The notes beneath the pieces were generated by a model, which was not told where the DNA came from, did no database searches, and worked only from the letters and a program-made list of their open reading frames with translations. This document shows, piece by piece, positions 1,521 through 57,691 of a DNA stretch of 64,000 nucleotides. The translations under genes and the position numbers were made by a program. Within the stretch, counting starts at the first letter, position 1. Each line of letters opens with the position of its first letter. Source of the stretch: a candidate division Kazan bacterium RIFCSPLOWO2_01_FULL_48_13 (GTDB taxonomy: Bacteria; Patescibacteriota; Kazan-3B-28; UBA10110); NCBI GenBank assembly GCA_001771275.1, contig METE01000001.1, positions 55,158-119,157 on the forward strand, read 5' to 3'.

Positions 1521-1744
1521 AGGTCAGAATTAATCCCGTTAGAGATCACCTAACGGCAACCCCGTTTCGAGCGGTGTAAATATTAACTTTATCAATAATA
1601 TCTCTATCTGTATCTCCTATAGTACTAAGTGTTACGATAGGTTGCCTATCTCTAACGGGATTAAGCGCTGTTTACATTATAGCCGAATGGTCATAACTAA
1701 AAAATCCCTCGCTACGAGAGATTTTTTAGGCTGTCTGCAAGCTA

Positions 1745-2458
1745 TAAGCCGAGTTCTGTCCCATCTCCAGTTCCTGGAACTGGGGATGGGGACGACTATC
1801 TATCTAGGCCTTATGTTGCCATAAGGCTCAAGCGTTGGGATCCCGGTCAGCCCGCCTTAACCCTCGGCGTTAGTAGCTGACATCAGGCCCACCCCAACTT
1901 GCACCGAATAGGGTTTACCGGGACACTTCGCTCACGCGGAGGCCTCGCGGGTAGCATACGGACACAAACTATCAGATTTAAACCTGATTTTCTGCGACAC
2001 TTAGGCTTTACCCCGCAACTTTTCACCTTTCCCCATCCCCAGTTTTGGACACAACCTCAAGAGAATTTTTTATTCTCTTGCGTATCTCCACGATTCCCGA
2101 TCCGTGGGATTTCAGCTTGGTTTCGCGAATCCGAGCATCATTTTGATCTACATGTAGTTCGGCATAAACCAGCCGTCAATCAGCATATTTATGCTTGGTG
2201 GATTGATTATTGCCCCTGCGATGCTCGGACAACCTGCGCTTGAGGTTGTTGGTCTCACCGGTATAATACTTTCCGGTAGATGGGTTGTATAGCATATAAA
2301 CCCAGTGCATAACCTCATTATAGATGTCCAAAACTGGAGATGGGTAGTATTGTCTCTGTGGCACTTTCCCTATCCATCTCCAGTTCCGAAAAACTGGGGA
2401 TGGACGGTTTCTGTTAGAAACTATCCGGGTTAATTTAAGGTGCTCGGACTTTCCTCCC
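1745..2458 (-). ncRNA. rnpB: Probable RNase P RNA (bacterial type A-like) with a large internal insertion
   Basis: Minus strand reads GGGAGGAAAGTCCGAGCACC (P4 5' strand) at 2455-2436 and TAACAGAAACC at about 2410. Further 3' it reads GGGGAAAGGTGAAAAGTTGCGGGGTAAAGCC (P10/11 region) and CGGTAAACCCTATTCGGTGCAAG. GCTTGAGCC...GGCCTAGATAGATAGTCGTCC[hairpin]GGACAGAACTCGGCTTATAG gives P15-P18 and the P4 3' strand. P4 shows covariation (CCGAG/CTCGG versus E. coli CCGGG/CCCGG). The gene is about 700 nt instead of about 380 because of roughly 350 nt inserted between the ACAGAAA element and P10. Confidence 0.5.
2176..2310 (-). pseudogene. GIY-YIG nuclease remnant (about 44 aa, C-terminally truncated) inside the rnpB insertion
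   Basis: The translation MHWVYMLYNPSTGKYYTGETNNLKRRLSEHRR carries the canonical GIY-YIG motif and then stops after about 44 aa. The upstream 50 aa of the 94-aa ORF-track entry is translated rnpB P4 sequence. Confidence 0.45.
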
Positions 2459-2640
2459 ATCCGTCAGCTGACGGACAGGCAGTCGTCCACTTACAAACAG
2501 CTCTGTTAGTATACGCCAAAATCCACGCCAATTCCAGCCCCTTGTCATCCTGGACCGACTGGCCAAGGGCCAAGTTCGGATTCAGGATCCAGGCCTGGAA
2601 TGACAGAATAAAGACGGGGAATATTATTGATTAAATTAGT
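2455..2640. repeat. Mosaic palindromic repeat modules (TCCGTCAGCTGACGGA hairpin; GTCATCCTGG...CAGGATCCAGGCCTGGAATGACA)
   Basis: The same modules recur at about 14.5 kb, 21.9 kb and 19.0 kb. Confidence 0.7.
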
Positions 2641-9099: not shown

Positions 9100-9860
9100 G
9101 CGCATTCTTTTGTCATCCTAAGGAACTCACCTATCGTCCTTCTGGCAAGTCCGATGCGTCGGACCGCTCCGCCAGCTGGCGGACAGAATCTTATAATTGA
9201 CGACGTTTACCCTGCGTCGTCATCCTCGCCTCGTCGGGGATCGTATACAAGATTCTGGAGTCGCTTCACTCCCCAGAATGACGACATGGAGATTGCGGAG
9301 CCTGTCCCGAGCGAAACGAGGGATCTCTGTCTTCTCGCAATGACAAAAAAGAAGTCATCCTGAAAACCCTCATGCCAATAAAAAATATCAAATATAAATA
9401 ACCCCCAACCGTCATCCTGAAAACACTTTACTGGGCCAAAGGCCCCCCTTTGGGGCCGTAGGCTATATAAAATACCCCCAACCGTCATCCTGAAAACACT
9501 TTACTGGGCCAAAGGCCCCCCTTTGGGGCCGTAGGCTATATAAAATAACCCCCAACCGTCATCCTGAAAACACTTTACTGGGCCAAAGGCCCCCCTTTGG
9601 GGCCGTAGGCCTATATAGATAACTTATTCAGGATCCAGGCCTGGATTCTCGGGTCAAGCCCGAGGATGACAAAAAATAGCCCGGGGATGACAAAGAAGTG
9701 GCCCAATGATACCCCTCGCACTGTCATCCTGAAAACACTTTACTGGGCCAAAGGCCCCCCTTTGGGGCCGTAGGCTTATATAGATAACTTATTCAGGATC
9801 CAGGCCTGGATTCCAGATCGAGTCTGGAATGACAAAATAGCAGCCTCAGAATGACAACAG
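9100..9860. repeat. Large mosaic repeat cluster including a 3x tandem ~70-bp unit (9401-9625)
   Basis: Unit CCCCCAACCGTCATCCTGAAAACACTTTACTGGGCCAAAGGCCCCCCTTTGGGGCCGTAGGCTATATAAAATA is repeated three times head-to-tail with no spacers. Region 9640-9800 is nearly identical to 29860-30060. Confidence 0.8.
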
Positions 9861-9879
9861 AAGTTGTTAATAAGCATCA

Positions 9880-11583: not shown

Positions 11584-12350
11584 CGGCTAATTCTATCGTG
11601 GCGCGATACTACTACCGAAGATGAATTATATCTGCCCCGCAGCAGATTTAATTTGACGCGCAGCAGATCGCGCAGCGTTCTTAATGCCTCCCGGCCAGTG
11701 CGGACCTTGCTCTCCATATCGTTGTACCAATCAATCCCTACTTCTTTAAAAGCATAACCTAAATGCCGCGCTATCACTAACACTTCGAAATCAAATCCAA
11801 ATCGATCCAACTTAACATTGGCAAAGATGTTCTTGCCGGCCCGCTGCTCAAATAATTTAAAGCCACATTGAGTATCGTAAATGCCCGGCACAGCCAAAAT
11901 GCGAATCAGCAGGTTGCTGGCTCGGGAGAGCAAAATTCGATGCCGAGACTGAGGAATATGCACATGGGCGCCACGACAGTACCTCGAACCGATTACTACT
12001 GGATATTGAGTAACATAAGGCAGTAATTTATCGACCTGTTCGATCGGAGTGGCATTATCCGCATCAGAAAATAGAATATACTGACCTTTGGCCCCCAATA
12101 CTCCCTGCTTAACCACCGCCCCTTTGCCTTGGTTCACGGAATTAGAAATAAATTTAAGTTCCGGCCAACCTTCGGCGATAATCGATACCACTGCGTCAGT
12201 GGTATCTTTGCTCCCATCGTTGACCACAATAACTTCGTAAACATACGATTGTCTATCCAAAAACTGACGCATCGCCGCTAAGGTTTTACCAATGCGACGC
12301 TCCTCGTTATAAGCCGGCACCACCACTGATAAATAAATACTCTCACCCAT
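11580..12350 (-). CDS. Family 2 glycosyltransferase (polyprenyl-phosphate glycosyltransferase, DPM1/ArnC/GtrB-like)
   Basis: VVVPAYNEERRIGKTL...VVNDGSKDTT...DADN. Start overlaps the stop of the upstream gene. Confidence 0.8.
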   Translation of the reverse strand: MGESIYLSVVVPAYNEERRIGKTLAAMRQFLDRQSYVYEVIVVNDGSKDTTDAVVSIIAEGWPELKFISNSVNQGKGAVVKQGVLGAKGQYILFSDADNATPIEQVDKLLPYVTQYPVVIGSRYCRGAHVHIPQSRHRILLSRASNLLIRILAVPGIYDTQCGFKLFEQRAGKNIFANVKLDRFGFDFEVLVIARHLGYAFKEVGIDWYNDMESKVRTGREALRTLRDLLRVKLNLLRGRYNSSSVVVSRHDRISR

Positions 12351-12364
12351 AATTGTTATATTTT

Positions 12365-12735
12365 ATCTGTCATCTTGAGTTTTACTGCGTCATACCCTCT
12401 TTTTTATTCGTCATTCCCGCCCCCGATCGTAGTCGAGAGTAAACTCCGGCGGCTTCCGGCTCTGAGAGCCTCCAGCTCGGAGAGGAATCCAGACATTAAA
12501 CTAAATAAATTATCATCCTGAGTTTTTGCTGTCATTTTAAGTTTTTTCTTGTCATCCTGAGTTTTTTAGCCACTCCCACATATCCCCTCTCGTCATCCTG
12601 AAAACACTTTACTGCTGTAGGCTATTATATAGATAACTTATTCAGGATCCAGGCCTGGATCCTCGGGTCCCCAGTAGTCGCGGGGCAGGCAAGCCCGAGG
12701 ATGACAAAAAAGGGCGAGAATGACGATGGGGGCGG
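12365..12735. repeat. Mosaic palindromic repeat cluster
   Basis: Multiple GTCATCCTGA / GGATGACA / GAATGACG modules plus the CAGGATCCAGGCCTGGATCCTCGGG module. Confidence 0.7.
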
Positions 12736-13846: not shown

Positions 13847-14766
13847 ATCTTTTTAGCCAAAATAAATACGCTACTGCCAAATGGCAGGCTGATATATCTA
13901 ATCAGCCACGCTTCTATCCAGCCTAAACCGATCAATAACCGGCTGATGGGATGGGGCGCAGCATTATACCCGGCTCCCCGGCCTAAACTTTTGGCCAGCA
14001 GCCGCTGGGCTACGAAGATCGGGAAGGTAAACATAAATACATACGAAGAAAATATCGGTTTAAATCCAGCTTGGGAAAGTTTAGCTGCTAACTTGCTTAA
14101 GGTATAGCGGCGCTGATGCAACAAGGCTTTATCATGCGGGCCATACAGCCACTGATACGCCGGTACGGAGATCGCCACACACCCACCAATGGTTAGAACA
14201 CGATGCCACTCTTTAAGCGCCGCTTCATCATCTAACAGATGTTCCAATACATCGAAAGCGGTGATCAGATCGATCGATTCATCCGGCCGAGGCAATTGCA
14301 GAGCATCGCCCTGTTCCGCTTCCCCGTGCTGCTTGGCCGAAACCAGCGCCACCTCGCTTTGATCAATGCCAGTAACCTTTCCCCACCGCCGCAAGAACTC
14401 TAAATTAAAACCCCCGCCGCACCCCACATCCAATATCTCCATTCCTTTTGTTGAAGCGTCATTGCGAGTAATCTCCCCCCATTTTGTCATTCCAGACTCG
14501 ATCTGGAATCCAGGCCTGGATCCTGAATCCGAACTTGGCCCTTGGCCAGTCGGTCCAGGATGACACATCAAGTCGTTATTCTGGGTAGGCCGTTCTCCAT
14601 CGTCATTCTGGGGAGTCCGTCGGCTGACGGACGACTCCAGAATCTTAGGATTATCAGATTCTAATAGCCACTTGTCTAATATCGAACGCCAGACCAGCCT
14701 CCGGCAGATATGCCACCAGTAAAACTGCTCCTGTTCGCCCATTTCGGCTACATCGCTTTCTTGCAT
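13843..14766 (-). CDS. Class I SAM-dependent methyltransferase (N-terminal region contains translated repeat element)
   Basis: ILDVGCGGGFNLEFL, ITAFDVLEHL. Residues ...MCHPGPTGQGPSSDSGSRPGFQIESGMTK... are encoded by the palindromic repeat at 14441-14700, so the true start may be a downstream Met such as MEILDVG. Confidence 0.55.
   Translation of the reverse strand: MQESDVAEMGEQEQFYWWHICRRLVWRSILDKWLLESDNPKILESSVSRRTPQNDDGERPTQNNDLMCHPGPTGQGPSSDSGSRPGFQIESGMTKWGEITRNDASTKGMEILDVGCGGGFNLEFLRRWGKVTGIDQSEVALVSAKQHGEAEQGDALQLPRPDESIDLITAFDVLEHLLDDEAALKEWHRVLTIGGCVAISVPAYQWLYGPHDKALLHQRRYTLSKLAAKLSQAGFKPIFSSYVFMFTFPIFVAQRLLAKSLGRGAGYNAAPHPISRLLIGLGWIEAWLIRYISLPFGSSVFILAKKI
14441..14700. repeat. 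Palindromic repeat modules lying in-frame in the 5' part of the methyltransferase ORF
   Basis: GTCATTCCAGACTCGATCTGGAATCCAGGCCTGGATCCTGAATCCGAACTTGGCCCTTGGCCAGTCGGTCCAGGATGACA followed by GTCATTCTGGGGAGTCCGTCGGCTGACGGACGACTCCAGAATC. Confidence 0.75.
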
Positions 14767-17418: not shown

Positions 17419-18963
17419 TTGCTCGGATCATATTGCTATACTAAAACTATGGTGCGAATTGGGCAGATTGGTCAGCGAATAAAAAAATGGTGGAAAATTA
17501 CTGATCCAGTTAATTGGTTGCTTTTGGTGGTGGCGGTGGGGTTCTGTGCCTATCCGTTAACTGACCCTGACTTCGGTTGGCAGTTACGCTCAGGTCTGGA
17601 TTTGCTAAAAACTCATCAATTACCCCAGTTTGACCCCTATTCTCACACTCTGCCCAACTGGCATTGGGTTAATTTAGAGTGGTTGAGTGAAGGAACGATA
17701 GCATTTATTTACCAGCATTTAGGGGCAGCATCGCTAATCTTTGCTTTTGCGCTAATGGCCGTCGCTATGTTAATAATTGCGGCATCGTGGTCAACAGGAG
17801 TTAGCCTAAAAGCCAAATTAGCAGTTGCTGTCTTGGCAGTTCTGGCCAATGTGGGGCGTTGGGGTGTACGGCTACAACTTATTACCCAACTGGGATTAGC
17901 AATCGTGCTGTGGTTATTTTCTCGCTATCGAATCGGCGCTATTAAGCATCTGTGGTGGTATATTCCGCTATTTTGGCTGTGGGCTAATCTCCATGGCGGG
18001 TTTTTTAGCGGGTTAGCAGTCTTAGGGTTGCTCTGGGTAGTAGAAGGGATTAAATGGCTCAATCGGCCTCGCCATCGTCACACTGTTTCATCAAGGATAA
18101 CCGAGCCCACCCTGCAACTGCCACAGCTAAGGCATTTGATGGTCGTTGGCTTATTGTCGGGCGCGGCGACCTTGATTAATCCATATGGCTGGCGGATATA
18201 TGAGGATATTTACCGGCTATTCTCTACCTCTTTCGTGTTGAAAGCCATCGCGGAGTGGAAACCGTTCTCGATCAGCGAATCCGGCAACTATTTTCTGTGG
18301 CTTTACTTTTGCTTGCTGATCATCGCTATGATATTTACCTACCGCAAAGTTGAACCTACTCGCTGGGTAGTGACCATATTTTTCTTTATTATGATGATTA
18401 CTGCCAACCGCAACTTGGCGTTATTCCTACTGATCAGCTCTGGATTTTTTGCCGAGGCGATCAACGGGCCGATGAAGTGGCTGACCTACCGTCTAATCCG
18501 ACTGCGGTGGTTGGCTGTCGCCATTACTGTTGGTGGATTCTATTGGGTAACCCCCAGCATACTGCGGTTTACTGAGACGGCGGATGATATTAAAACCATT
18601 TCCCAGATCGGACGCTACCCTCTATCTGCCATCGAGTGGGCTAAGGCCCACCCAGACCAGATTGGAGACCGGCTGTTCAATATGTACGGCCAGGGCGGGT
18701 TTTTGCTGTGGCAACTGCCAGAGAAAAAGATCTTTATTGATGGGCGGATGTCGTATTGGCAGATAGATAATCGGTGGGTTTTTCGAGATAGCATTGCAAT
18801 TAATGGAGCCTACCCCGGCGCGGTGCAGATGATGGAGGAAAAATATCAGGTCGACTGGGTGTTAGTTGACCCGCGAATAAAGTTGGCACTGGAACTGAGC
18901 CAACGACCCGACTGGCAGTTGGTCTATCAAGATTCGTTGGCGGTTATTTATACCAAAAAATAA
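17419..18963 (+). CDS. Polytopic membrane protein, 'DPDFGWQLRSG' family (putative GT-C-like), paralog of 21029 and 43514
   Basis: 514 aa; about 10 TM plus a C-terminal domain with FNMYGQGGFLLWQLPEKKIFIDGRM, conserved in all three paralogs. Confidence 0.55.
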   Translation: MLGSYCYTKTMVRIGQIGQRIKKWWKITDPVNWLLLVVAVGFCAYPLTDPDFGWQLRSGLDLLKTHQLPQFDPYSHTLPNWHWVNLEWLSEGTIAFIYQHLGAASLIFAFALMAVAMLIIAASWSTGVSLKAKLAVAVLAVLANVGRWGVRLQLITQLGLAIVLWLFSRYRIGAIKHLWWYIPLFWLWANLHGGFFSGLAVLGLLWVVEGIKWLNRPRHRHTVSSRITEPTLQLPQLRHLMVVGLLSGAATLINPYGWRIYEDIYRLFSTSFVLKAIAEWKPFSISESGNYFLWLYFCLLIIAMIFTYRKVEPTRWVVTIFFFIMMITANRNLALFLLISSGFFAEAINGPMKWLTYRLIRLRWLAVAITVGGFYWVTPSILRFTETADDIKTISQIGRYPLSAIEWAKAHPDQIGDRLFNMYGQGGFLLWQLPEKKIFIDGRMSYWQIDNRWVFRDSIAINGAYPGAVQMMEEKYQVDWVLVDPRIKLALELSQRPDWQLVYQDSLAVIYTKK

Positions 18964-18965: not shown

Positions 18966-19320
18966 CCACCCGCGCCAATAAAAAATATCAAATATAAAAT
19001 AAAAAATCACCCCCTTTTTGTCATTCCCGAGCCGAGTGCCGTAGGCAACTCGACATCGGGAATCCAGGCCTGGATCCTGAATCCGAACTTGGCCTTTGGC
19101 CAGTCGGTCCAGGATGACACCTCTTTTGTTATTCCTGTCCACTTCGTCATTCTGGGGAGTCCGTCGGCTGACGGACGACTCCAGAATCTTGTATACGATC
19201 CCCGACGAGGCGAGGATGACGACGCAGGGTAAACGTCGTCAATTATAAGATTCTGGGCGCATTTGCCATGGGCAAATTTGCCGGAATGACGGAAGGTGAG
19301 TCGGGCAGGATGACAGCAGG
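18966..19320. repeat. Mosaic palindromic repeat cluster
   Basis: CATGCCAATAAAAAATATCAAATATAAA module; GTCATTCCCGAG...GGAATCCAGGCCTGGATCCTGAATCCGAACTTGGCC...CCAGGATGACA; GTCATTCTGGGGAGTCCGTCGGCTGACGGACGACTCCAGAATC; GGGTAAACGTCGTCAATTATAAGATTCTGG. Confidence 0.75.
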
Positions 19321-19329: not shown

Positions 19330-20982
19330 TTACTTACTGCGTTTCTTTTTGTTGGATTTTGGCTTAGCTACCGATTTGGTTGATGGAGCAGCCTTTTTAG
19401 TCACCCGTTTAGGTTTAACGGTTGTCTTATGCGCAATTGGCACTAATATCTCTTGGCCAGCCCGCAAGCGATATGGCGGCCGAAGATTATTTAACCGAAC
19501 AATTTCTTGAATGCTAATACCAGCAAACTCGGAAATATCGTAGATGGTGTCACCCTTTTCGGCCACCAACGCCTCCATTGCCACCGTCGGCACTCCCCCT
19601 TTCGTCATTCTGGGGAGTGAAGCGACTCCAGAATCTTGAGATTCTGGATGCGGTCCGATGAGTCGGACCTTACCAGAATGACGAGCGGTGGAGACAACAC
19701 CCATGTTACGGCGGCGGAAGCGAATCTTACCCAACAACGCACCAACAAACTTCAAATCGGTTAGCCATACCTTGCGCTGTTCGGCCTTATAGTAAGCGTT
19801 CCAGTCATCACCCATTGTCAGACGCTCACCCCTACTCATCTGGCCTTGGGGAATTAATAACACATCATCCACATTTAATTCGTACGGCCAGCGAAGCAGA
19901 TTAAACTTAGCTAACTTTTTAGGATGCACGCCATAAAGCTGGGCTACCGACATTAGCGTTTCGCCCTTTTTAACTTTATGTTTTTTGGTGCGGGTATTTA
20001 ACCTGCTTTGGATTAACAACCACAACCAGAGATTACGAATTAACAGCAACAGAATAATCCCGCCGATAAACCATAGAATCTTAATCCACTGAATTATCCA
20101 AAACACATATCGCACATCGATGTACTCATCCTTAACATATTCACCTTTAAAATCCTTTTCACCGTAGTGCAGCCGGAAATCCGCCACAAATCGGCCAAAG
20201 GCTGGCGGGTTTTTCTGCCAGGGCAGCTGAGCGGTAATTTCAGATCCCCTCAGCAACATTCCGATCTCTGCACCACTCTGCGACCCTACCTTGCCAAACA
20301 ATCCTCGCAAAGTTACATCGGCAATAGCATTAAGTTGCACATTGCCGTTATTCTTTAACCGAAGAAAGAAATAGAGTAGGCCGTTGCCAATAGAGTGCCT
20401 GATCTGCTTAACCTCCAACCGCCTTTGGATCTCACCCGGTACTGTTAAATACATCCGCGCCGCTATCCGAGTTACGACTGTCAACTGGCTGCTATTCTTT
20501 TTCTTAGCTCCCAAGGTGCTCGCCTCAGCCGGTTTTTCCAAAACGACTATCCCACCAGGGTGACTACCAACATCAGCATTGTCCGGTACTGTTACTGTAA
20601 AATTCAGAATTTGATTAGATTTAGGTGGTAGAGTCACTTCTGTTTTCTCCAACTCTACCCAAGTGCCAATGTCCTTGTTATCGGCCATGCTACCGATTAA
20701 GGTATAGCCGCCATTTTGAGACACTGCGCCATCTAAGGCCGCTACTATTAAATTAACGGACTTGTTGCCCCGATTTATTACATTGACCCGATCTTTAATT
20801 ACGGTCTTGGCTTCAGCCTCATAAACAAACCAGGACCGATTGGCCGGATAATCTTTGGTGGCTGCCGGCATTACGCCGATACCTCCAGTTTCAACCGCAT
20901 AAGCCATTGGTTGGCCGGACAACAAAAATACCGCTACCAATAGCAGCCAAACAACTACAAAAAGGATTTTTGTTTTTTTCAT
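19330..20982 (-). CDS. DUF916/DUF3324-like (CscA-like) surface protein with TM segment, two LysM domains and a Lys-rich tail; an in-frame repeat insertion lies between the LysM domains
   Basis: Signal peptide; NRSWFVYEAEAKTV...DIGTWVELEKTEVTLPPKSNQILNFTVTVPDNADVGSHPGGIVVLE (DUF916-like); TM FWIIQWIKILWFIGGIILLLLI; LysM 1 HKVKKGETLMSVAQLYGV...LLIPQ; LysM 2 VAEKGDTIYDISEFAGISIQEIVRLNNL...ILVP. Residues RLIGPHPESQDSGVASLPRMTKGG are encoded by the repeat at 19603-19685. Confidence 0.6.
   Translation of the reverse strand: MKKTKILFVVVWLLLVAVFLLSGQPMAYAVETGGIGVMPAATKDYPANRSWFVYEAEAKTVIKDRVNVINRGNKSVNLIVAALDGAVSQNGGYTLIGSMADNKDIGTWVELEKTEVTLPPKSNQILNFTVTVPDNADVGSHPGGIVVLEKPAEASTLGAKKKNSSQLTVVTRIAARMYLTVPGEIQRRLEVKQIRHSIGNGLLYFFLRLKNNGNVQLNAIADVTLRGLFGKVGSQSGAEIGMLLRGSEITAQLPWQKNPPAFGRFVADFRLHYGEKDFKGEYVKDEYIDVRYVFWIIQWIKILWFIGGIILLLLIRNLWLWLLIQSRLNTRTKKHKVKKGETLMSVAQLYGVHPKKLAKFNLLRWPYELNVDDVLLIPQGQMSRGERLTMGDDWNAYYKAEQRKVWLTDLKFVGALLGKIRFRRRNMGVVSTARHSGKVRLIGPHPESQDSGVASLPRMTKGGVPTVAMEALVAEKGDTIYDISEFAGISIQEIVRLNNLRPPYRLRAGQEILVPIAHKTTVKPKRVTKKAAPSTKSVAKPKSNKKKRSK
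19603..19685. repeat. Palindromic repeat element inserted in-frame inside the CDS 19330..20982
   Basis: CGTCATTCTGGGGAGTGAAGCGACTCCAGAATCTTGAGATTCTGGATGCGGTCCGATGAGTCGGACCTTACCAGAATGACGAG. Confidence 0.75.
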
Positions 20983-21028
20983 TCTAAAAATCTGTTCTAC
21001 TGTGTTTTATTATACCATTCCCCTCTGA

Positions 21029-22642
21029 TTAGTTAAGCTTAGTTGTGAGAACTCGACCAAATAGCCAGCAATTATTGTCTTGATATAGTGCTTCCCAGCC
21101 ATCGGAGTTACGCAGAAAATACTGCGCAAATTGACTTTGTTTTTTAATCAAGATTAAATCGGCCTTATATTTATTTAAGATGGCTGTGGTCGGCTCATCC
21201 TCTACCGATAACGAGGTGTACTCCTTGAATAGATTTTGAGTGGGAGTCTGCCAGATTGCCATCCGCCCATCAATAAATACCGGTTTTTCGGGCAGCTGCC
21301 AGATTAGATAACCACCCCAGCCATACTCGTTAAACAAGTTACCAGGCAGGTGATGCTCTTTTATATACTGCACTGCGCCCACTGGATAGCCGGCGGCCCT
21401 GAACAATGATTCTTGATTGGTCGATAGGGGCACCACGCTGAGAGATTGAACATAACCGTAGTATCCCACCCCAATCAATAAGGCAAATCCTATCCAGACC
21501 GATCGAGTATAGTAGCTAATGCCGGCTGGTAGCAATACGGCAACGGCATCGGCTAAGAGTGGTAAAGTAACTAATGGGAATAACGGCATATTTCGCCAGC
21601 TGCTGATAGAAATTACAAAAAATACTATCCCAATAAATATTTTAGTGCCATCCATTTTACGCCAACTCATCAGCACAAATATCGCTAACAAGATTGCATA
21701 GATCAGTAGATTAAAGCCATTAACGCTGCCTAAATCCACCGGTAGCCATTCCGAGATATTAGATTTAACTAAATCGTTAAAGACCGTTCTAACAAATTCC
21801 TCATACACTCGCCAAGTGTATGGATTAACCAGAGTCACCGCACCCGACAACAGACCCACCCAGACTAACTGCCACAACTCTTTAGCCGATAGAAATCCAG
21901 CTCCTTTTGTCATTCCAGACTCGATCTGGAATCCAGGCCTGGATCCTGAATCCGAACTTGGCCCTTGGCCAGTCGATCCAGGATGACAGTTTTGTAATTT
22001 AGGATGACGCCCAGACCGCTTCCATATATACTTAGCCAACTCAAACACTCCAAACGCGCCCATTAAAATTAGCCCAGCCATAAATCCACCATGCAGATTT
22101 ACCCAGATCAGCATCAAGGGGATCAGCCAAAATATTAATTTGTTTTCTGGCTTTTCTCGCCATCGAAATAGAATCCACAAGATAGCCGCCAACCCTAATA
22201 ATGTAATCAGCTGAGGCCGGACTCCCACGATTGGGTAAGCTACTAATATGGCAATCAGTGTGGTCAACACGGTCGCTGGCCAACTAACCCGGGATACCCG
22301 AGAGGCCAATAGATAGGCGGCGACGGCGATCAAGGCAAATAAAACTACTAAAAATAATAGGCCCCAATAATGTGACCCAAGATATAGTAGCACATCAGTT
22401 AGCCACTCGTGCGATATCCACGGATAGCCCGGCATAGTATACGAGTAGCTGTCGCCCCGCGGGACTCCAAATTTTAAGATATCTTCCCCGTTTCTAAGAT
22501 GCCAGCCCAAATCCGGATCACGAGGTGAACGCAAGGTTAATAAAAAAGCCAATGTTAAAGTGAGTGCTATAAACGATCGATCACGCAGAATCGCCACTTT
22601 TGACGAGAATCTATTCATTGCCTGTATTAATAAATTTAACAT
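21029..22642 (-). CDS. Polytopic membrane protein, 'DPDLGWHLRNG' family (putative GT-C-like), with in-frame repeat insertion
   Basis: 537 aa; paralog of 17419 and 43514 (conserved FNEYGWGGYLIWQLPEKPVFIDGRM). The segment ...LQNCHPGSTGQGPSSDSGSRPGFQIESGMTKGAGF... is absent from the paralogs and is encoded by the repeat at 21908-22010. Confidence 0.55.
   Translation of the reverse strand: MLNLLIQAMNRFSSKVAILRDRSFIALTLTLAFLLTLRSPRDPDLGWHLRNGEDILKFGVPRGDSYSYTMPGYPWISHEWLTDVLLYLGSHYWGLLFLVVLFALIAVAAYLLASRVSRVSWPATVLTTLIAILVAYPIVGVRPQLITLLGLAAILWILFRWREKPENKLIFWLIPLMLIWVNLHGGFMAGLILMGAFGVFELAKYIWKRSGRHPKLQNCHPGSTGQGPSSDSGSRPGFQIESGMTKGAGFLSAKELWQLVWVGLLSGAVTLVNPYTWRVYEEFVRTVFNDLVKSNISEWLPVDLGSVNGFNLLIYAILLAIFVLMSWRKMDGTKIFIGIVFFVISISSWRNMPLFPLVTLPLLADAVAVLLPAGISYYTRSVWIGFALLIGVGYYGYVQSLSVVPLSTNQESLFRAAGYPVGAVQYIKEHHLPGNLFNEYGWGGYLIWQLPEKPVFIDGRMAIWQTPTQNLFKEYTSLSVEDEPTTAILNKYKADLILIKKQSQFAQYFLRNSDGWEALYQDNNCWLFGRVLTTKLN
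21908..22010. repeat. Palindromic repeat element inserted in-frame inside the CDS 21029..22642
   Basis: GTCATTCCAGACTCGATCTGGAATCCAGGCCTGGATCCTGAATCCGAACTTGGCCCTTGGCCAGTCGATCCAGGATGACAG...AGGATGACG; same module as 14468-14570. Confidence 0.8.
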
Positions 22643-24281
22643 GATCAGCCTGGGCTAAAAATTCTCTAACGGAAGGTAGAGAGAGGTCATAGTAGGTAAT
22701 ATGACCGATCCGCTCAGGCAATGTAATCGCTGATAATTTATTAGCAACTGGATCATTCCAGTTTTCCCTCACCACCACCATCCAATTATCTCCAGGCGCT
22801 AATTCCAGATCATCCACTAACTCATATCTTTGGCCATAAGCTCTATACCAGTTTTTATGCTCGGGATTAGCTATTCCCCACGCTATCCGCTGGTAGGTAA
22901 CATGGTTCGGAAAATAGTATTGAAAATGCTCTAAGCCCCAATGTATAAATGGTTGATCAATGGCTATAACCGTATTTTGAGGATTAAATTCTTGGTTAAT
23001 AGTCGGTATAAGATTATTCCACAGCCGATCTATCGTATAGATGGTGTAATGAGTTGGTACATTGGGCTCAATAATCTGGCGCCCAGACCTTAAATAAATC
23101 CAGGTGTTGCCGGCGATCAATAATGATATGACACTAATCAGATAGGCAGTTGGCCAAAATCGTTGTGCCGATGGTAGATGAGCTAATAATTGAACCGTTA
23201 CATCAACTAAGATGGTAATTGTTCTGGCAATCAAGATCGTTAGCCCAGGGATGAGTACTAACAAATAACCCGGAAGAGTATAGACACCGAAGATATAGAA
23301 CAAACTGGCCGGCAAAACTAATACTAACCAAAAGTATAAATTGAATAAATTAATCTTGTTGGTGTTAGTTCGCGGGACAGCCAGTAGCGCTAAGAATAGC
23401 ACCAAAGCCGCGCTGGAAAAATTGAAATTGATCAATAAGCCCTTGAATATCATATTAAACTGATCCCACGCAGCGCTTAAGCCATGGTTAAGCGACACGA
23501 ATTTGTCCATCCCGGGCGCTAACAACAGCGCACTAACTGCTGCCCAAAATTTTAACCATCCGCCACTAAGAGCTGCCGCTGGCCAGACCCAACTTAAAGT
23601 AATTAGCCCAATAACCCCCACATTCAAAAGCGCCACTCGCCAACTGCGTTGTCGCCAAATCATCCATAGCCACAACGGCGCCATAAACAATACCGAAGTG
23701 GGCCTAAACCCACCACTAATGGCTAATACCACACTCGCCCACAACGCTAATCGTGGGTTAGCCTTTTTGGTCGATAGAATCTGATACGCTAAATAACCAA
23801 ACCAAGACATAAACAACGCATCGGATAAATAGTTGAGTGCTACTTGGCCGTAGAACCAAACTACTGGCGCTGATATAAACATCGACACCGCCACCCACGC
23901 CGTTGGCTGGCCATATATTTTTTTGGCTAAATAATAGAGGGTATACAGCGCCCCAATTGAGAAGATGATGCTAACAATAATGAGAGCAGTATTAGCATCT
24001 CCCATTAACCAATAGATTGGTTTAGTAAACAGAATGTACAACGCGTAGCCCATTGGATGAGGCCGGTGGATTGACACATCGTATTTATCTAAGGCTAAAG
24101 CGTATTTGACCGCATCGACCGAATAGAGAAACTGGCTATGACCAACCCAACGGGTAACAATTATGGTAATAGCTAAAATCCCTAACCATAACTGCTCAGG
24201 CTGATTTGCAAACCATTTGTATATAAGTTTTATTGACAGCCGCTGGTTGGCCAATCGTTTTTTACTTAAACCTAACTTCAT
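22611..24281 (-). CDS. Polytopic membrane glycosyltransferase-like protein (GT-C, ArnT/PMT-like)
   Basis: 556 aa, about 12 TM, N-terminal loop with YSVDAVKYALAL; start overlaps the downstream gene by 32 nt. Confidence 0.45.
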   Translation of the reverse strand: MKLGLSKKRLANQRLSIKLIYKWFANQPEQLWLGILAITIIVTRWVGHSQFLYSVDAVKYALALDKYDVSIHRPHPMGYALYILFTKPIYWLMGDANTALIIVSIIFSIGALYTLYYLAKKIYGQPTAWVAVSMFISAPVVWFYGQVALNYLSDALFMSWFGYLAYQILSTKKANPRLALWASVVLAISGGFRPTSVLFMAPLWLWMIWRQRSWRVALLNVGVIGLITLSWVWPAAALSGGWLKFWAAVSALLLAPGMDKFVSLNHGLSAAWDQFNMIFKGLLINFNFSSAALVLFLALLAVPRTNTNKINLFNLYFWLVLVLPASLFYIFGVYTLPGYLLVLIPGLTILIARTITILVDVTVQLLAHLPSAQRFWPTAYLISVISLLIAGNTWIYLRSGRQIIEPNVPTHYTIYTIDRLWNNLIPTINQEFNPQNTVIAIDQPFIHWGLEHFQYYFPNHVTYQRIAWGIANPEHKNWYRAYGQRYELVDDLELAPGDNWMVVVRENWNDPVANKLSAITLPERIGHITYYDLSLPSVREFLAQADHVKFINTGNE

Positions 24282-24493: not shown

Positions 24494-25081
24494 TTAAGTA
24501 AGGGTAAAGGTAGCTATGCCAGTATAAACACCGGCTGCGTCGGTGCCGGTAACATTCAATAGAAACTCTGAGTTATCATAACCAAACGCGCCACTCGCCT
24601 GAGTAGAGCCATTAAGAATGGTGCTGCCGCCGTCGTTAAGCGGGCCGTCTCCCGACATCAGGGCAACTCGGTTGGTATCTCCCGCTGAGATATTGCGGAT
24701 AGTACCATTATTAGTGATCTTTAGCCGACTGGCCGAGATGATATTGGTACCAGCCTGCATATTATTAGCACTAACGGTCACATTCCATTCAGTGCCGCTA
24801 CCGCGCAAATCAGTAATTTCGACTCCATCTGTTTCTGTGTCACCGACATGAGCCGAGTTACTCTCGCCATAGTTCATCATCGGGAAATTGACGCCTTCTG
24901 GCGCGTTAACAATAGTAAAAGCCCCAGCGTTAACATTAAATGAGACATTAGTTAAATCAGTGTCTGCCCACACCACTCCCAAAGTGTTGCCGATCATCAG
25001 AGCGGCTACCAAAAGGGCAAGACCGCCAAATAGTTGCTGTCTGACCTGATTTTCCGCCTTTTTGAGAATAGTGTTATCCAT
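24494..25081 (-). CDS. Small secreted WxL-like surface protein (csc 'B'-like)
   Basis: N-terminal TM/signal; GTEWNVTVS (WxL-like); extreme C-terminus ...YTGIATFTLT matches the C-terminal motif of 42790, 46502 and 14930. Confidence 0.45.
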   Translation of the reverse strand: MDNTILKKAENQVRQQLFGGLALLVAALMIGNTLGVVWADTDLTNVSFNVNAGAFTIVNAPEGVNFPMMNYGESNSAHVGDTETDGVEITDLRGSGTEWNVTVSANNMQAGTNIISASRLKITNNGTIRNISAGDTNRVALMSGDGPLNDGGSTILNGSTQASGAFGYDNSEFLLNVTGTDAAGVYTGIATFTLT

Positions 25082-25503: not shown

Positions 25504-25589
25504 TAACTCTTTCATCTGGCGGTCCGACTGGTCGGACAGGCTCGCCCCGAAGCACATCGGGGCGCACCCCGACCATAAAAATATCATCA

Positions 25590-25660
25590 CCCCTCCACTT
25601 CATTCCGTCATTCTGGCAAATCCGTCAGCTGACGGATGCGTCCAGAATCTTTACAATGAA
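25590..25660. repeat. Palindromic repeat module (GTCATTCTGGCAAATCCGTCAGCTGACGGATGCGTCCAGAATC) immediately upstream of the GIY-YIG gene
   Basis: Same hairpin module as at 14800-14850, 19140-19190 and 26090-26140. Confidence 0.75.
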
Positions 25661-25663
25661 CTC

Positions 25664-25975
25664 ATGATTAAGGGAGGGTTTGTTTATATTATGGGGAGTT
25701 ATAAATTAACTCTGTACACAGGGGTAACCAATAATTTAATTCGTAGGGTATACGAACATAAATACAGCTTGGTTCCTGGATTTACAGCTAAATACAAATG
25801 CCACAATTTACTTTATTACGAGACCTCTGATTTTATAGAGCCTGCTATTATTCGAGAAAAGCAAATTAAGGATTTAAATCGAATCGATAAGATTAAACTA
25901 ATTAAAACCATCAACCCCAACTTAGAGGATTTGTACTCACAGATTCTGGGCGCGTCTGCTGACTTGCCAGAATGA
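25664..25975 (+). CDS. GIY-YIG nuclease family protein (small, YhbQ/COG2827-like)
   Basis: FVYIMGSYKLTLYTGVTNNLIRRVYEHK...LLYYE...AIIREKQIK; start taken at Met69 of the ORF-track entry. The stop codon lies inside a 60-bp unit that is tandemly duplicated downstream. Confidence 0.75.
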   Translation: MIKGGFVYIMGSYKLTLYTGVTNNLIRRVYEHKYSLVPGFTAKYKCHNLLYYETSDFIEPAIIREKQIKDLNRIDKIKLIKTINPNLEDLYSQILGASADLPE

Positions 25976-26420
25976 CGATATTAAGAGGATTTGTACTCAC
26001 AGATTCTGGGCGCGTCTGCTGACTTGCCAGAATGACGATAGAGAAATTCGGAATAATAAGACGGCGACTCAGAACGAAAAAATAAACCGTCATTCTGGTA
26101 AGTCCGTCAGCTGACGGACGCATCCAGAATCTTATATACAATTCTGGACAACTTAGAATGACGAGGAGGGTAGGATGACGATATTAAGAGGATTTGTATT
26201 CACAGATTCTGGGCGCGTCTGCTGACTTGCCAGAATGACGATGAAGAAAGATTCTGGATCACCGCTTTCGCGGGGATGACGATGAGAAGTAAACGGCGTC
26301 AATTATACGATCCTGGACGAAGCCAGGATGACGCCACAAGGTAAACGGCGTCAATTATACGATCCTGGACGAAGCCAGGATGACGCCACAAGGTAAACGG
26401 CGTCAATTATCACCTGTGAG
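25921..26420. repeat. Tandem and mosaic repeat array downstream of the GIY-YIG gene
   Basis: 60-bp unit TTAAGAGGATTTGTACTCACAGATTCTGGGCGCGTCTGCTGACTTGCCAGAATGACGATA x2 (25921-26040), with a third copy at about 26183. 54-bp unit GTAAACGGCGTCAATTATACGATCCTGGACGAAGCCAGGATGACGCCACAAG x2.4 (26289-26420). TCCGTCAGCTGACGGA hairpin at 26100. Confidence 0.8.
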
Positions 26421-28114: not shown

Positions 28115-29419
28115 ATGAGATACACGCAAAGTTTTCTTAAAACTAGCAAGCAAGCGCCGAAGGACGCCGAAACCATCTCACATCAGTTTTTGACCAGAGG
28201 CGGATTTATTCACACGCTGGGAGCTGGTTTTTATTCAATGCTACCAATGGGGTTTCGAGTCCGCGAGAAGGTAATGCAAATTATTAAAGAAGAGCTGAAT
28301 GCTATTGGGGTCGAGGATATGATCATGCCGGTGGTCCATCCAGCCAAGCTGTGGAAGGAGACCGGACGGTTCGAGACTATTGGCCCAGAACTTTGGCGGA
28401 TAAAAAACCGAAGCAAGGAGGATTTTGTGCTGGCGATGACTCATGAGGAGATCGTTACTGATGCGGCCAAGCCGATAATTAATTCATACAAGGATCTGCC
28501 CAAATTAGTTGGCCAAATTCAAATTAAGGTGCGGGACGAAGCGCGGGCGCGGGGTGGGTTACTAAGAACCCGCGAATTCACTATGCAAGATGCTTACTCA
28601 TTCGATCGCGACGAGGCCGGATTAAATAAAAATTACGATAAATTTATCGGTGCTTACAAAAAAATATTTAAACGAGTCGGCGTCGAAACAGTTATGATCA
28701 AGTCAGATACAGGAGCAATGGGAGGGTTGGATGCCGATGAGTTTATGATGGTAGCTGATAACGGAGAAGATAGGATCTTCACCTGTCCCGTATGTGGCTA
28801 CGCCGCTAATGCTGAGTATTTAGAAGCTGTGAGTTTGCACCAAGAGCCAGACGACATACCGCTGACAAAAGACGAAAAAAGTCAGGCTGTATCAAAATCT
28901 TCAGATTGCCCCCGCTGTCTATTGATGGACACCAAACACACAAAAATGGGAATTACACGAGGCATCGAAGTCGGGAACACATTCAAACTTGGCACTAAGT
29001 ACAGCGGACCGTTGAAGTTAAATTACAAAGACGAGAAAAACCAGGAACACTCGGTGGTGATGGGTAGCTACGGTATCGGAGTTGAACGATTGATCGCCTC
29101 GGTGGTCGAGGCGAGCCACGATGATAGTGGTATTATCTGGCCGGTTAATATTGCGCCGTACCGCGTTTATCTCATCAGTATTGGAGAAGATAAAGCAGCC
29201 GATAAGCTTTATCAACGGCTAATTAAGGCTGGGGTTGAAGTATTCTACGACGATAGAGATGTTAGCCCGGGCGAGAAGTTTGCCGACGCCGATCTATTCG
29301 GCATGCCATATCGGGCGGTCGTAGGGGCTAAGGCCAAGGGCAAGGTTGAGTTAAAGAAGCGCGATGCGAAAAAAGTGGAGTTACTATCGGTCACCGAATT
29401 TTTGCGCAAAGTTAAGTAA
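28115..29419 (+). CDS. proS: Proline--tRNA ligase (short form lacking editing insertion)
   Basis: Class II motif 2 RDEARARGGLLRTREFTMQDAYSF; motif 3 region GSYGIGVERL; anticodon-binding C-terminus. tRNA-Pro lies nearby. Confidence 0.75.
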   Translation: MRYTQSFLKTSKQAPKDAETISHQFLTRGGFIHTLGAGFYSMLPMGFRVREKVMQIIKEELNAIGVEDMIMPVVHPAKLWKETGRFETIGPELWRIKNRSKEDFVLAMTHEEIVTDAAKPIINSYKDLPKLVGQIQIKVRDEARARGGLLRTREFTMQDAYSFDRDEAGLNKNYDKFIGAYKKIFKRVGVETVMIKSDTGAMGGLDADEFMMVADNGEDRIFTCPVCGYAANAEYLEAVSLHQEPDDIPLTKDEKSQAVSKSSDCPRCLLMDTKHTKMGITRGIEVGNTFKLGTKYSGPLKLNYKDEKNQEHSVVMGSYGIGVERLIASVVEASHDDSGIIWPVNIAPYRVYLISIGEDKAADKLYQRLIKAGVEVFYDDRDVSPGEKFADADLFGMPYRAVVGAKAKGKVELKKRDAKKVELLSVTEFLRKVK

Positions 29420-29439
29420 GTCGCCTCCGCCATCTCTGA

Positions 29440-29551
29440 CTTTATTCTTGTCATCTATAGCATTCCCCCTCACTGTCATCCTGAGAGTTACCCCTGCTGT
29501 CATCCCAGAGCCGGAGGCGATAGCCATCCGACATCTGGGATCCAGGCGAAA
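29440..29551. repeat. Repeat modules upstream of GIY-YIG gene
   Basis: CTGTCATCCTGAGAGTTACCCCTGCTGTCATCCCAGAGCC...GGGATCCAGG. Confidence 0.6.
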
Positions 29552-29902
29552 ATGAAACAGTACTATGTTTATATCCTTGCCAGTAATCGTAACGGAACCT
29601 TGTATGTCGGGGTAACCTCTGTGTTGATTAAAAGAGTCCACGAACACAAGACGGACATCACAGCAGGGTTCACCAAAGAACACCGCGTACATCGGTTAGT
29701 ATATTACGAAGTAACCAACGACATAGAATCGGCCATTGCCCGAGAAAAACAGCTGAAATCATGGAATAGAAAATGGAAAATCGACCTGATTGAAAATACT
29801 AATCCGCAGTGGGAAGATTTATACCCGAACATTATCGGTCAAGATAGTGGCCTGGATCCTCGGGTCAAGCCCGAGGATGACAAAAGAATAGCCCGAGGAT
29901 GA
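29552..29902 (+). CDS. GIY-YIG nuclease family protein (small, YhbQ/COG2827-like); C-terminus runs into repeat array
   Basis: YYVYILASNRNGTLYVGVTSVLIKRVHEHK...LVYYE...AIAREKQLK; the last ~15 codons and the stop are inside the GGATCCTCGGGTCAAGCCCGAGGATGACAAAA repeat. Confidence 0.7.
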   Translation: MKQYYVYILASNRNGTLYVGVTSVLIKRVHEHKTDITAGFTKEHRVHRLVYYEVTNDIESAIAREKQLKSWNRKWKIDLIENTNPQWEDLYPNIIGQDSGLDPRVKPEDDKRIARG

Positions 29903-30170
29903 CAAAAAATAGCCCGAGGATGACAAAGAAGTGGCCCAATGATACCCCTCGCACTGTCATCCTGAAAACACTTTACTGGGCCAAAGGCCCCCCTTTGGGG
30001 CCGTAGGCCTATATAGATAACTTATTCAGGATCCAGGCCTGGATCCTCGGGTCAAGCCCGAGGATGACAAAAAATAGCCCGAGGATGACAAAAAATAGCC
30101 CGAGGATGACAAAGAAGTGGCCCAATGATACTAAAATGTACAGACTCAGAATGACACCAAGATAATTCAA
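29850..30170. repeat. Mosaic repeat cluster; segmental near-duplicate of 9640-9800
   Basis: AGCCCGAGGATGACAAA x5; CCTCGCACTGTCATCCTGAAAACACTTTACTGGGCCAAAGGCCCCCCTTTGGGGCCGTAGGCCTATATAGATAACTTATTCAGGATCCAGGCCTGGATCCTCGGGTCAAGCCCGAGGATGAC. Confidence 0.8.
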
Positions 30171-52367: not shown

Positions 52368-52373
52368 CAAAAT

Positions 52374-56928: not shown

Positions 56929-56946
56929 ACCCGACAAGGAATTTCG

Positions 56947-57682: not shown

Positions 57683-57691
57683 GCAGCTTTC

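Follow-up and report, generated by a model that had tools for sequence, protein, structure and literature searches.

Two probable Ssn-type GIY-YIG nuclease genes in hairpin-repeat cassettes, accompanied by gene-less repeat doublets, in a candidate division Kazan bacterium

The Ssn family (cd10448), comprising GIY-YIG nucleases of ~94 aa, and its NTS/SRM hairpins (SRM, Ssn-related motif) were described by Chenal et al. (2025, Nat Commun 16:2388; PMC11893778). Binding of the hairpin by Ssn and cutting of single-stranded DNA just upstream of it were demonstrated biochemically, and SRMs were reported in the flanks of 71% of Ssn homologues, on both sides in 42% (PMC11893778). The NTS-ssnA-NTS arrangement was noted in the same paper, Rickettsia was placed among the SRM-rich genera, and the analogy with IS200/IS605 and REP/RAYT was drawn (PMC11893778). 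The sole demonstrated biological role of Ssn is the modulation of transformation in Neisseria, and a mobilising role is a hypothesis in that work also (PMC11893778).

Other described systems share parts of this layout. In the REP/RAYT and REPIN systems of Proteobacteria, one or a few gene copies are flanked by inverted hairpins, and abundant gene-less doublets resemble non-autonomous derivatives; RAYT, however, is an HUH/Y1 single-strand transposase acting through a covalent intermediate, and Ssn a GIY-YIG nuclease acting by hydrolysis. GIY-YIG homing endonucleases of the I-TevI type share the catalytic fold and have a selfish-gene character, but they possess extra DNA-binding domains, cut double-stranded DNA and reside in introns or phage genomes. 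Rickettsia palindromic elements (RPEs) are short palindromic elements found in frame in protein-coding genes, where they are tolerated as extra peptide segments.

The window analysed here is a 64-kb stretch (64,000 nucleotides) of contig METE01000001.1 from the candidate division Kazan bacterium RIFCSPLOWO2_01_FULL_48_13. Three GIY-YIG reading frames, g1, g2 and g3, are present in it, and the coordinates of all features are given in Table 1. Taken together, the data are best explained if g1 and g2 are single-domain GIY-YIG nucleases of the Ssn family lying in SRM cassettes, the hairpins of the window are SRMs, and the gene-less pairs of hairpins (doublets) are mobile, with Ssn cleavage perhaps behind their spread; we regard this explanation as probable, the cleavage step less so. 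In the first-pass annotation, the association of these genes with the repeats was presented as a potentially new repeat/nuclease pairing. The pairing is in fact a member of the published Ssn/SRM system (PMC11893778) and, being already in the literature, the novelty claim as worded adds little. What is new here is the coexistence of two Ssn paralogues, each paired with its own repeat flavour, and evidence from sequence comparison that gene-less repeat pairs insert at new sites.

Table 1. Coordinates of the GIY-YIG reading frames, SRM hairpins and gene-less doublets in the window
Feature	Position	Strand	Details
g3, predicted non-Ssn GIY-YIG ORF, P12 loop of rnpB	2023..2310	-	95 codons; one in-frame TGA at 2176-2178
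Gene-less tail-to-tail SRM doublet	12592..12705	.	joined by exact CCAGGCCTGG
Further doublet	14486-14564		joined by CCAGGCCTGG
Further doublet	19020-19118		joined by CCAGGCCTGG
C-class SRM doublet	19604..19682	.	in frame, inside LysM-protein ORF 19330-20982
81-nt SRM doublet	21908..21988	-	in frame (27 codons), inside membrane-protein ORF 21029-22642
Further doublet	21909-21987 (the 81-nt doublet of the preceding row)		joined by CCAGGCCTGG
5' SRM of g1 cassette, C-class	25606..25652 (hairpin 25607-25648)	+	CGTCATTCTGG-loop-CCAGAATCTTT
g1, divergent Ssn-type GIY-YIG gene	25664..25975	+	103 aa; Pfam PF01541 E=1.5e-8, residues 5-73
3' SRM of g1 cassette, C-class, inverted	25943..25977 (hairpin 25943-25976)	-	overlaps last 11 codons and stop
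Tandem duplicate of g1 3' end (last ~17 codons and 3' SRM)	25977..26036	+	60-nt unit
Gene-less SRM array downstream of g1	26089..26384	mixed	
Array element	26089-26130	+	
Array element	26206-26239	-	
Array element	26258-26280	-	
Array element	26310-26332	-	
Array element	26362-26384	-	
5' SRM of g2 cassette, T-class	29498..29545 (hairpin 29499-29541)	+	TGTCATCCCAGAG-loop-TCTGGGATCCAGGC
g2, canonical Ssn-type GIY-YIG gene	29552..29902	+	116 aa; Pfam E=2.1e-15, residues 3-77
3' SRM of g2 cassette, T-class	29852..29882 (hairpin 29856-29881)	-	TGTCATCCTCGGGCTTGACCCGAGGATCCAG; fits published SRM search pattern
Gene-less composite downstream of g2	29956..30110	.	long-loop SRM, CCAGGCCTGG junction, SRM 30039-30069 (-), half-site repeats
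Further doublet	50868-50956		joined by CCAGGCCTGG

PF01541 was the sole domain recovered for g1 and g2 in a Pfam search, which detected no second (DNA-binding) domain in either protein. No family-level name was obtained from NCBIfam, where TIGR01453 reached 17 bits for g2, well below its cut-off of 56, and nothing matched g1; the only match in a PDB sequence search was 1zg2 (E=0.0026), and no intron was found by an Rfam search. As bare catalytic domains in repeat cassettes, g1 and g2 are unlike the I-TevI-type enzymes, and with a single GIY-YIG domain and a size of about 95-116 aa they resemble the published Ssn proteins.

Membership in the Ssn family was judged by proxy, from homology to proteins enclosed by exact NTS consensus sites, which took the place of N. 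meningitidis SsnA (NMV_0044). When Neisseria ssnA was sought by a scan for inverted NTS ends, Neisseria loci were recovered, with ssnA in none of them, and Betaproteobacteria proteins flanked by NTS sites were taken as its stand-in. Against the NTS-enclosed 94-aa proteins of Nitrosomonadales (L046) and Methylotenera (L004), g1 showed 48-49% identity (E~1e-27) and g2 58-61% (E~1e-38); for g2, the identity to proteins with canonical NTS sites in their flanks is 58-66%, and the identity between g1 and g2 is 50%. All 32 near-invariant residues of the family are present in g2, which has 7,609 homologues across phyla, many at 65-70% identity. In g1, residues Y8, Y18, G20, R28, H32, E53, E65 and N84 are kept and three conserved tryptophans are substituted (W71L, W75D, W87L), and the protein may be impaired, a point that was counted against the preferred explanation.

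The repeat motifs are abundant, with 33 copies of GTCATYC and 39 of GRATGAC grouped in some 15 clusters, most of them intergenic. The published SRM pattern, HGTCWYN(0-2)YYVSBRHN(0-5)WNVSBRGN(0-2)RNCYNB, gave 3 matches in the window vs. 0.26 expected, including the 3' SRM of g2. Since this pattern allows a loop of at most 5 nt and most local loops are longer, it undercounts the repeats, and a structural search was used instead. In the 64 kb of the window this yielded 42 hairpins of the GTC-stem-loop-stem type, compared to 2.7 +/- 1.6 in 50 dinucleotide shuffles. The local repeats are oriented and read YGTCAT-stem-loop-stem-ATCYRG, and the many gene-less copies are mainly intergenic, as in the published system. 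In contrast to that system, many of the local loops are long (17-41 nt, often with a nested hairpin) and fall outside the published search pattern. The host also differs, being a candidate-phyla-radiation bacterium with two paralogues and two repeat flavours.

Each gene is accompanied by a distinct flavour of repeat. Stems of CGTCAT-ATTCTGG or CGTCAT-ATCCTGG with ATCTTR/ATCGTA tails (C-class) go with g1, and TGTCAT stems with ATCCAG tails (T-class) go with g2. The same pairing was observed at related loci: SRMs with the ATTCTGG stem occur with g1-like genes in L002, L127, L128/L129 and L130 (for L002 this is true of the 3' SRM alone, the 5' one having the stem ATCCTGG), and TGTCAT...ATCCAG SRMs accompany the g2 orthologues in L001 and L002. 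The base preceding GTCAT (T or C) was considered as a specificity mark across phyla and rejected; it varies within single cassettes elsewhere and tracks the tail only in this lineage.

Both intact genes had been proposed to be flanked by the repeat on both sides, and this was confirmed: the upstream modules are real hairpins, and inverted partners lie over the 3' ends. The 5' SRM of g1, with a nested palindrome (TCCGTCAGCTGACGGA) in its loop, ends 15 nt upstream of the ATG, and that of g2 ends 10 nt upstream. As single-stranded DNA the flanking SRMs of both genes fold well, three of the four at z of about -4 to -5, with -11 kcal/mol (z=-4.05) for the 5' SRM of g1, -12.8 kcal/mol (z=-4.17) for the 5' SRM of g2 and -10.1 kcal/mol (z=-5.0) for the 3' SRM of g2; the 3' SRM of g1 folds more weakly (z=-1.56). 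The stop codons were likewise correctly placed inside repeat units, both lying in the ATGAC end of a repeat; the TGA of g1 is within CCAGAATGAC. The SRM encodes the C-terminal tail of g2 (GLDPRVKPEDD...) and is followed by half-site repeats to about 29925.

The reported duplication of the g1 3' end was also found, the third copy of the unit lying at about 26177-26240 (tblastn 26188-26238, 100% over 17 aa), and a comparable three-fold duplication is present in L002. As a general hallmark of such genes this feature was rejected, as a scan of 119 genes found it in just 3 (L002, L067, L205), while missing the g1 of the window itself. In the downstream array, element 26258-26280 lies inside a 28-nt NTS alignment (26254-26281) that departs from the Neisseria NTS consensus at 3 positions.

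Inverted NTS ends separated by 300-360 nt were sought in an unbiased scan, which recovered 120 loci from many phyla, with at least a dozen groups among those listed, and in 32 of them the interval is filled by an Ssn ORF. In these 32 cassettes, SRM(+) lies 2-23 nt before the ATG and SRM(-) lies 4-11 nt past the stop or over the last codons, a geometry shared by the g1 and g2 cassettes. Among metagenome relatives of g1, GTCAT or ATGAC was found within 100 nt in 64 of 68 (94%), vs. 7% of control windows. By the strict hairpin definition, an upstream SRM was present in only 21 of 74 g1 relatives, which was counted against the preferred explanation.

The third frame, g3, had been described as a truncated remnant adjoining the repeat family like the other two. 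It is instead a full-length ORF, running from 2310 to 2023 with a single in-frame TGA, that fills loop P12 of the RNase P RNA; with the TGA read through, it matched Pfam GIY-YIG at E=9.6e-16. Against the Ssn profile it scored 38 bits, compared to 107 for g1 and 171 for g2, and the C-terminal NPxWxDL motif is absent. No GTCAT hairpins were found flanking or within the rnpB insertion, the nearest (2544-2588) being outside rnpB. Judged from these features, g3 is a different GIY-YIG type, outside the Ssn/SRM system. Consequently, two of the three GIY-YIG copies, g1 and g2, are embedded in the repeat family, not all three as had been claimed.

Several doublets in the window consist of two SRMs joined tail to tail by CCAGGCCTGG. 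As the g2 cassette reads CCAGGC-gaaa-ORF-GCCTGG, such a doublet looks like the cassette minus its gene. The 81-nt doublet in the membrane-protein ORF is carried by 3 of 121 homologues and absent from the other 118; it is 91% identical to the copy in L209, while the flanking coding DNA is only 67-68% identical. No clear target-site duplication was found at this insertion, the flanks (67%) being too diverged to decide; this was counted against the preferred explanation. The LysM-protein ORF holds a C-class doublet, and its orthologues in L207 and L209 have a T-class one within the same short linker region. The in-frame position inside genes recalls the RPEs and departs from N. meningitidis, where only 2% of NTS are intragenic. 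ORF 17419-18963, looked up exactly with a view to strain variants of a repeat cluster, is absent from the records.

The site of g1 (tRNA-Pro/GARS) is empty in L001 and occupied by an inverted cassette in L002; in L127, which is more distant, it contains a pseudogene cassette of 79% identity. In L001 and L002 the proS-argS site, where g2 lies, likewise has g2 orthologues (79-81% identity), and their divergence matches that of the host (77-88% for the neighbouring GARS, ArgRS and ProRS). With one syntenic site in three genomes, g2 looks resident and vertically inherited and not like an active jumper, which was also counted against the preferred explanation. An apparent second g2 locus on a contig of the same species (L123) joins window positions 29305-30131 to 9555-11831 via a shared SRM array; an assembly chimera and a real recombination were indistinguishable there, and the contig was left out of the evidence. 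Contigs of the same species occur in JGI sample 3300002502. Comparison of the in-gene doublets and of the g1 site indicates that the repeats reach new positions, some of them in frame within genes; that Ssn moves them is a hypothesis.

In the mechanism proposed here, the standard cassette is SRM(+), about 10-15 nt, ssn and SRM(-), with the YGTCAT ends facing outward. If it works like the enzymes tested from Neisseria and Wolbachia, the Ssn protein would bind the SRM hairpin once the DNA becomes single-stranded, recognise the YGTCAT flank in its orientation together with the ATC-tail, and nick a few nucleotides to the 5' side of the motif. The spread of doublets would then be started or biased by cuts at the ends that face outward, with joining by host replication or repair, a step that we infer and to which we give slightly less than an even chance. 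Since GIY-YIG nucleases act by hydrolysis, with no covalent intermediate, strand transfer by Ssn alone is impossible, and this too weighs against the preferred explanation. Alternatively or in addition, Ssn may act as in Neisseria by cutting SRM-bearing single-stranded DNA in transformation and recombination. A further-reaching claim would be that cassettes and gene-less doublets form a true system of the autonomous-IS-plus-MITE type, driven by a bare GIY-YIG single-strand nuclease in place of a transposase, active in candidate-phyla-radiation genomes, inserting 81-nt doublets in frame and comprising co-evolving nuclease/repeat specificities in one genome; this is advanced only tentatively, as something that may hold but on balance is doubtful.

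The layout alone, with a gene between inverted hairpins and REPIN-like doublets, would fit strict REP/RAYT-type transposition, in which a single-strand transposase moves hairpins via a covalent intermediate. This was refuted at the level of enzyme class, the protein being a GIY-YIG nuclease (Pfam GIY-YIG only) and not an HUH/Y1 transposase; the repeat head is GTCAT here and GTAG in REP, and the flanking hairpins lie on opposite strands, in contrast to the one-strand processing of IS200/IS605 ends. Such transposition is practically untenable. What stands of the earlier RAYT analogy is the specific partnership of nuclease and hairpins and a layout like that of an autonomous element with non-autonomous derivatives; the RAYT-like mechanism does not. 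It is also very improbable that small selfish genes and unrelated repeats merely gather in the same permissive intergenic DNA. The gene does occur in only 2 of about 15 repeat clusters of the window, but spacing and orientation are alike in the 32 cassettes from many phyla, the motif is enriched beside the gene well above the controls, and binding and cleavage are published (PMC11893778). Homing-type spread would treat the doublets (..ATCCAGG meeting CCTGGAT..) as empty targets that Ssn nicks, repair from a filled copy then placing the gene at the centre. In its favour, g2 lies exactly at the doublet junction, in place of the CCAGGCCTGG of five or six naked doublets; homing endonucleases exist among other GIY-YIG families, and the genome is rich in such genes, with four LAGLIDADG ORFs in the rRNA region and the GIY-YIG ORF in rnpB. 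Homing is nevertheless unlikely, as at least five empty T-class doublets are unfilled in 64 kb vs. one filled copy, the CCAGGCCTGG junction is missing from C-class doublets, and the published enzyme cuts single-stranded DNA only, at a point upstream of the hairpin instead of the junction (PMC11893778).

The alternative deserving most attention is that Ssn is a resident host function which restricts or shapes recombination of SRM-bearing single-stranded DNA from transformation, the SRMs multiplying by other routes, for instance slippage, gene conversion or unrelated recombination. The syntenic position of g2 and its divergence in step with the host in three genomes agree with this, as do the half-sites and tandem units in the arrays, which are typical of slippage. 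Candidate-phyla-radiation bacteria are generally thought to depend on DNA uptake, which was counted in its favour. It is also consistent with the only role so far demonstrated for Ssn, in transformation (PMC11893778). A resident function would, however, not account for the exact position of the gene, in many phyla, between SRMs that face outward, for the match of gene-less doublets to the g2 cassette minus the gene, or for the arrival of a complete 81-nt doublet in frame within a gene. It is considered a real possibility, though one falling clearly short of an even chance, and mobile doublets spread with the help of Ssn cleavage are the preferred explanation.

The locus bears on a question left by the 2025 paper, namely whether Ssn/SRM units are mobile elements or have been domesticated as tools of the host. 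In this small and repeat-dense genome, the dated insertion of a whole doublet into a conserved gene is one asset for the question of mobility, and a second is an orthologous site found empty, filled and inverted among close relatives. With two nuclease/repeat flavours side by side, the genome is also a natural system in which to test specificity and mobilisation. The use of Ssn enzymes to cut single-stranded DNA is being proposed as well, and the long-loop SRM variants described here widen the known substrate range.

Each of the two small GIY-YIG genes of the window, g1 and g2 (50% identical to each other), was preceded by a plus-strand hairpin repeat whose end lies 15 nt (g1) or 10 nt (g2) upstream of the ATG, and a minus-strand repeat overlapped its last codons, so that the GTCAT ends of both cassettes face outward like terminal inverted repeats. 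The stop codon of either gene is a TGA within the ATGAC repeat end. The tandem 60-nt duplication described at the 3′ end of g1 in the first-pass annotation is real, as is the third copy of this unit near 26183. The window belongs to a Patescibacteria (candidate phyla radiation) genome; its closest contigs carry Patescibacteria annotations.

Ssn proteins are GIY-YIG single-strand nucleases of ~94 aa (CDD cd10448) whose binding site is an oriented hairpin repeat (Chenal et al. 2025, PMC11893778). The repeat is CGTCATTCCCGCGMAVGCGGGAATCYRG in Neisseria (NTS) and has the Ssn-related motif (SRM) as its general form; ssDNA is cleaved just upstream of it, while duplex DNA and RNA stay uncut (PMC11893778). 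SRMs occur in the flanks of 71% of Ssn homologues, on both sides in 42%, and specificity differs among homologues (PMC11893778). The first-pass annotation correctly regarded nuclease and repeats as partners, but the pairing that it proposed as new had already been published, including the comparison of NTS-ssnA-NTS with an insertion sequence and the analogy with IS200/IS605 and REP elements (PMC11893778); its own RAYT analogy holds for the layout and no further.

Coordinates of the features discussed (window positions)
Feature	Position	Strand	Description
g1	25664-25975	+	intact ORF, 103 aa; GIY-YIG the sole Pfam domain (E = 1.5e-8)
g2	29552-29902	+	intact ORF, 116 aa; GIY-YIG the sole Pfam domain (E = 2.1e-15)
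rnpB	1729-2498	-	insertion of ~320 nt at about 2040-2345, P12 terminal loop
g3 ORF	2310-2023	rnpB strand	95-codon GIY-YIG ORF, nearly fills the insertion
LAGLIDADG endonuclease ORFs (n = 4)	57010-57591, 55347-55949, 54495-55091, 53657-54136
CCGTCRGCTGACGG sites	2461, 14617, 14833, 19161, 25622, 26104, 52152, 59264, 60198
Surface gene beside SRMs	22611-24281		PMT_2-type glycosyltransferase-like protein
Surface gene beside SRMs	21029-22642		membrane protein related to the PMT_2-type one
Surface gene beside SRMs	19330-20982		LysM protein
Surface genes beside SRMs			DUF6311 protein; WxL protein

Inverted NTS ends (GTCATTCCCGC...GCGGGAATGAC) spaced by 300-360 nt were sought in an unbiased way across 185,579 species genomes; at least 120 loci were found, among them loci of Neisseria, other Betaproteobacteria, Dehalococcoidia, Binatia, Saccharibacteria, Moraniibacteriota and Parcubacteria. 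For 32 of the 120 listed loci, the ORF in the interval matched the g2-homologue profile (E from 1e-22 to 1e-51), and the geometry of these cassettes was constant, with SRM(+) lying 2-23 nt upstream of the ATG and SRM(-) either 4-11 nt past the stop codon or overlapping the final 22 nt. In two betaproteobacterial cassettes with flanks identical or close to the NTS consensus, the 94-aa proteins were 58-61% identical to g2 and 48-49% identical to g1. All near-invariant family residues are present in g2; g1 keeps the catalytic residues and has lost three conserved tryptophans. From the SRM matches, cassette geometry, identities and conserved residues, g1 and g2 were filed as Ssn family members, with g1 divergent, a sequence-based assignment made through the NTS-flanked betaproteobacterial proteins.

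Repeats with ends of the forms GTCATYC (n = 33) and GRATGAC (n = 39) surround g1 and g2 and recur in about 15 further clusters, most of them intergenic. A structural search, which required a stem immediately after GTC and its complement beyond a loop of at most 45 nt, returned 42 elements in the window, compared with 2.7 ± 1.6 in dinucleotide shuffles. The repeat consensus is YGTCAT-stem-loop-stem-ATC-tail, preceded at −9 to −1 by a pyrimidine-rich stretch. Of the four SRMs that flank the genes, three folded well as ssDNA (z about −4 to −5); folding was weaker for the 3′ SRM of g1 (z = −1.56) and for an NTS-like copy (z = −2.59). The published SRM pattern matched three times in the window, against 0.26 expected, the 3′ flank of g2 being one of the matches; most local copies have loops longer than this pattern allows. 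One repeat (alignment 26254-26281) differs from the NTS consensus at 3 of 28 positions.

The window repeats fall into two classes. Across phyla, the base before GTCAT is an unreliable mark. The T class (TGTCAT...ATCCAG) flanks g2 and its orthologues in the relatives' contigs L001 and L002; the C class (CGTCAT...ATCTTR/ATCGTA), with stems ATTCTGG or ATCCTGG, flanks g1 and its relatives in L002, L127, L128/L129 and L130. These two flavours fit the differing homologue specificity reported in PMC11893778. Complete flanks were available for 68 metagenomic relatives of g1: GTCAT/ATGAC lay no farther than 100 nt away on one side or both in 64 of them, and on both in 42, against a control rate of 7%. 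Under a strict perfect-stem definition an upstream SRM was present in only 21 of 74 relatives; imperfect hairpins were seen on inspection. The clade is thus not one that is common without repeats, the finding that the first-pass annotation had named as contrary to its proposal.

The palindrome CCGTCRGCTGACGG (9 sites in the window, 0 expected) makes up the loop in several C-class SRMs. It is also the P3 hairpin of rnpB (2461-2474), lies inside the 23S rRNA gene (59264-59277), and stands alone after tRNA-Pro in L001. SRM clusters adjoin cell-surface genes (19330-24281, 9880-11583, 24494-25081), an anecdotal echo of Neisseria, where NTS cluster near surface-protein genes.

The first-pass annotation was largely right in placing the GIY-YIG genes within repeats, as regards g1 and g2. 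The rnpB copy, g3, which it had counted as a third, repeat-adjacent copy, is by its sequence features a different thing: its Ssn-profile score was only 38 bits, the family C-terminal motif is absent, and no SRM flanks were found. Large insertions are present in both the RNase P RNA and 23S rRNA genes. An extended P12 stem of 20 bp closes the P12 insertion, and g3 has a single in-frame TGA where its homologues, only five among 5.8 billion proteins, have Trp. An intact 92-aa version of the ORF occupies the identical P12 position in rnpB of the related contig L125 (3832-4533). The insert has no room for a group I intron core; it is similar to the intervening sequences of 23S rRNA that carry ORFs. 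We know of no earlier description of a protein gene lying within RNase P RNA. One LAGLIDADG ORF lies inside the 23S rRNA match (56029-59988; 3960 nt versus the 2925-nt model) and three lie in the 3.5 kb that separate this match from the 5S gene (52372-52484); several insertions may split the 3′ region of the 23S gene.

The interval from tRNA-Pro to GARS varies among relatives. The site is empty in L001 (166 nt, SRM absent) and is occupied in L002 by a g1-like gene of 61% identity in opposite orientation. In L127, from a more distant host (ProRS 64.5%, PMT 45% identical), a 79%-identical g1-like copy with an in-frame TGA adjoins tRNA-Pro, GARS not being a neighbour there. This TGA replaces CGA in the REKQ motif (gene at 3001-3297); with the rnpB ORF, two GIY-YIG ORFs carry one TGA interruption each. 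A second, partial tRNA 3′ end (..CACCCCGACCA) lies between tRNA-Pro and the g1 cassette (25504-25606), and a remnant in L002 (2036-2115, GATCGGAGGTGCAAGTCCTCTCGCCCCGACCA) is a near match to the L127 tRNA-Pro in its 3′ half, not to L002's own gene. This may be a trace of integration or replacement at the tRNA.

Gene-less doublets, in which two SRMs stand tail to tail, also bear on mobility. Five T-class doublets have exactly CCAGGCCTGG at the junction and the g2 cassette reads CCAGGC-gaaa-ORF-GCCTGG, so the doublet resembles a cassette minus its gene. An 81-nt doublet (21908-21988) adds 27 codons (CHPG...SGMT) in frame to the conserved membrane-protein gene. It was present in 3 of 121 homologues (the window, a same-species copy and the 71%-identical orthologue in L209) and absent from 118; the L001 and L002 orthologues are without it. 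The window and L209 copies of the element share 91% identity, compared with 67-68% for the flanking coding DNA. The neighbouring LysM-protein gene carries a C-class doublet in frame within a short linker region (19604-19682, ~27 codons, residues 434-460), where its L207 and L209 orthologues have one of the T class. Such in-frame doublets inside protein-coding genes are reminiscent of Rickettsia palindromic elements.

In L123 (JGI 3300002502, 2945 nt), from the same species, the g2 locus is joined to the DUF6311 locus (window 29305-30131 to 9555-11831) across ~180 nt of shared SRM array, which is either an assembly chimera or real inter-array recombination. Several points argue against active movement: the position of g2 is syntenic in three genomes and its divergence is in line with that of the host, no target-site duplication was readable at the doublet insertion, and GIY-YIG enzymes, being hydrolases, cannot join DNA unaided. 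A search for follow-up literature demonstrating Ssn/SRM mobility found none. For the hypothesis of mobilisation by Ssn, the evidence at this locus is supportive, not decisive.
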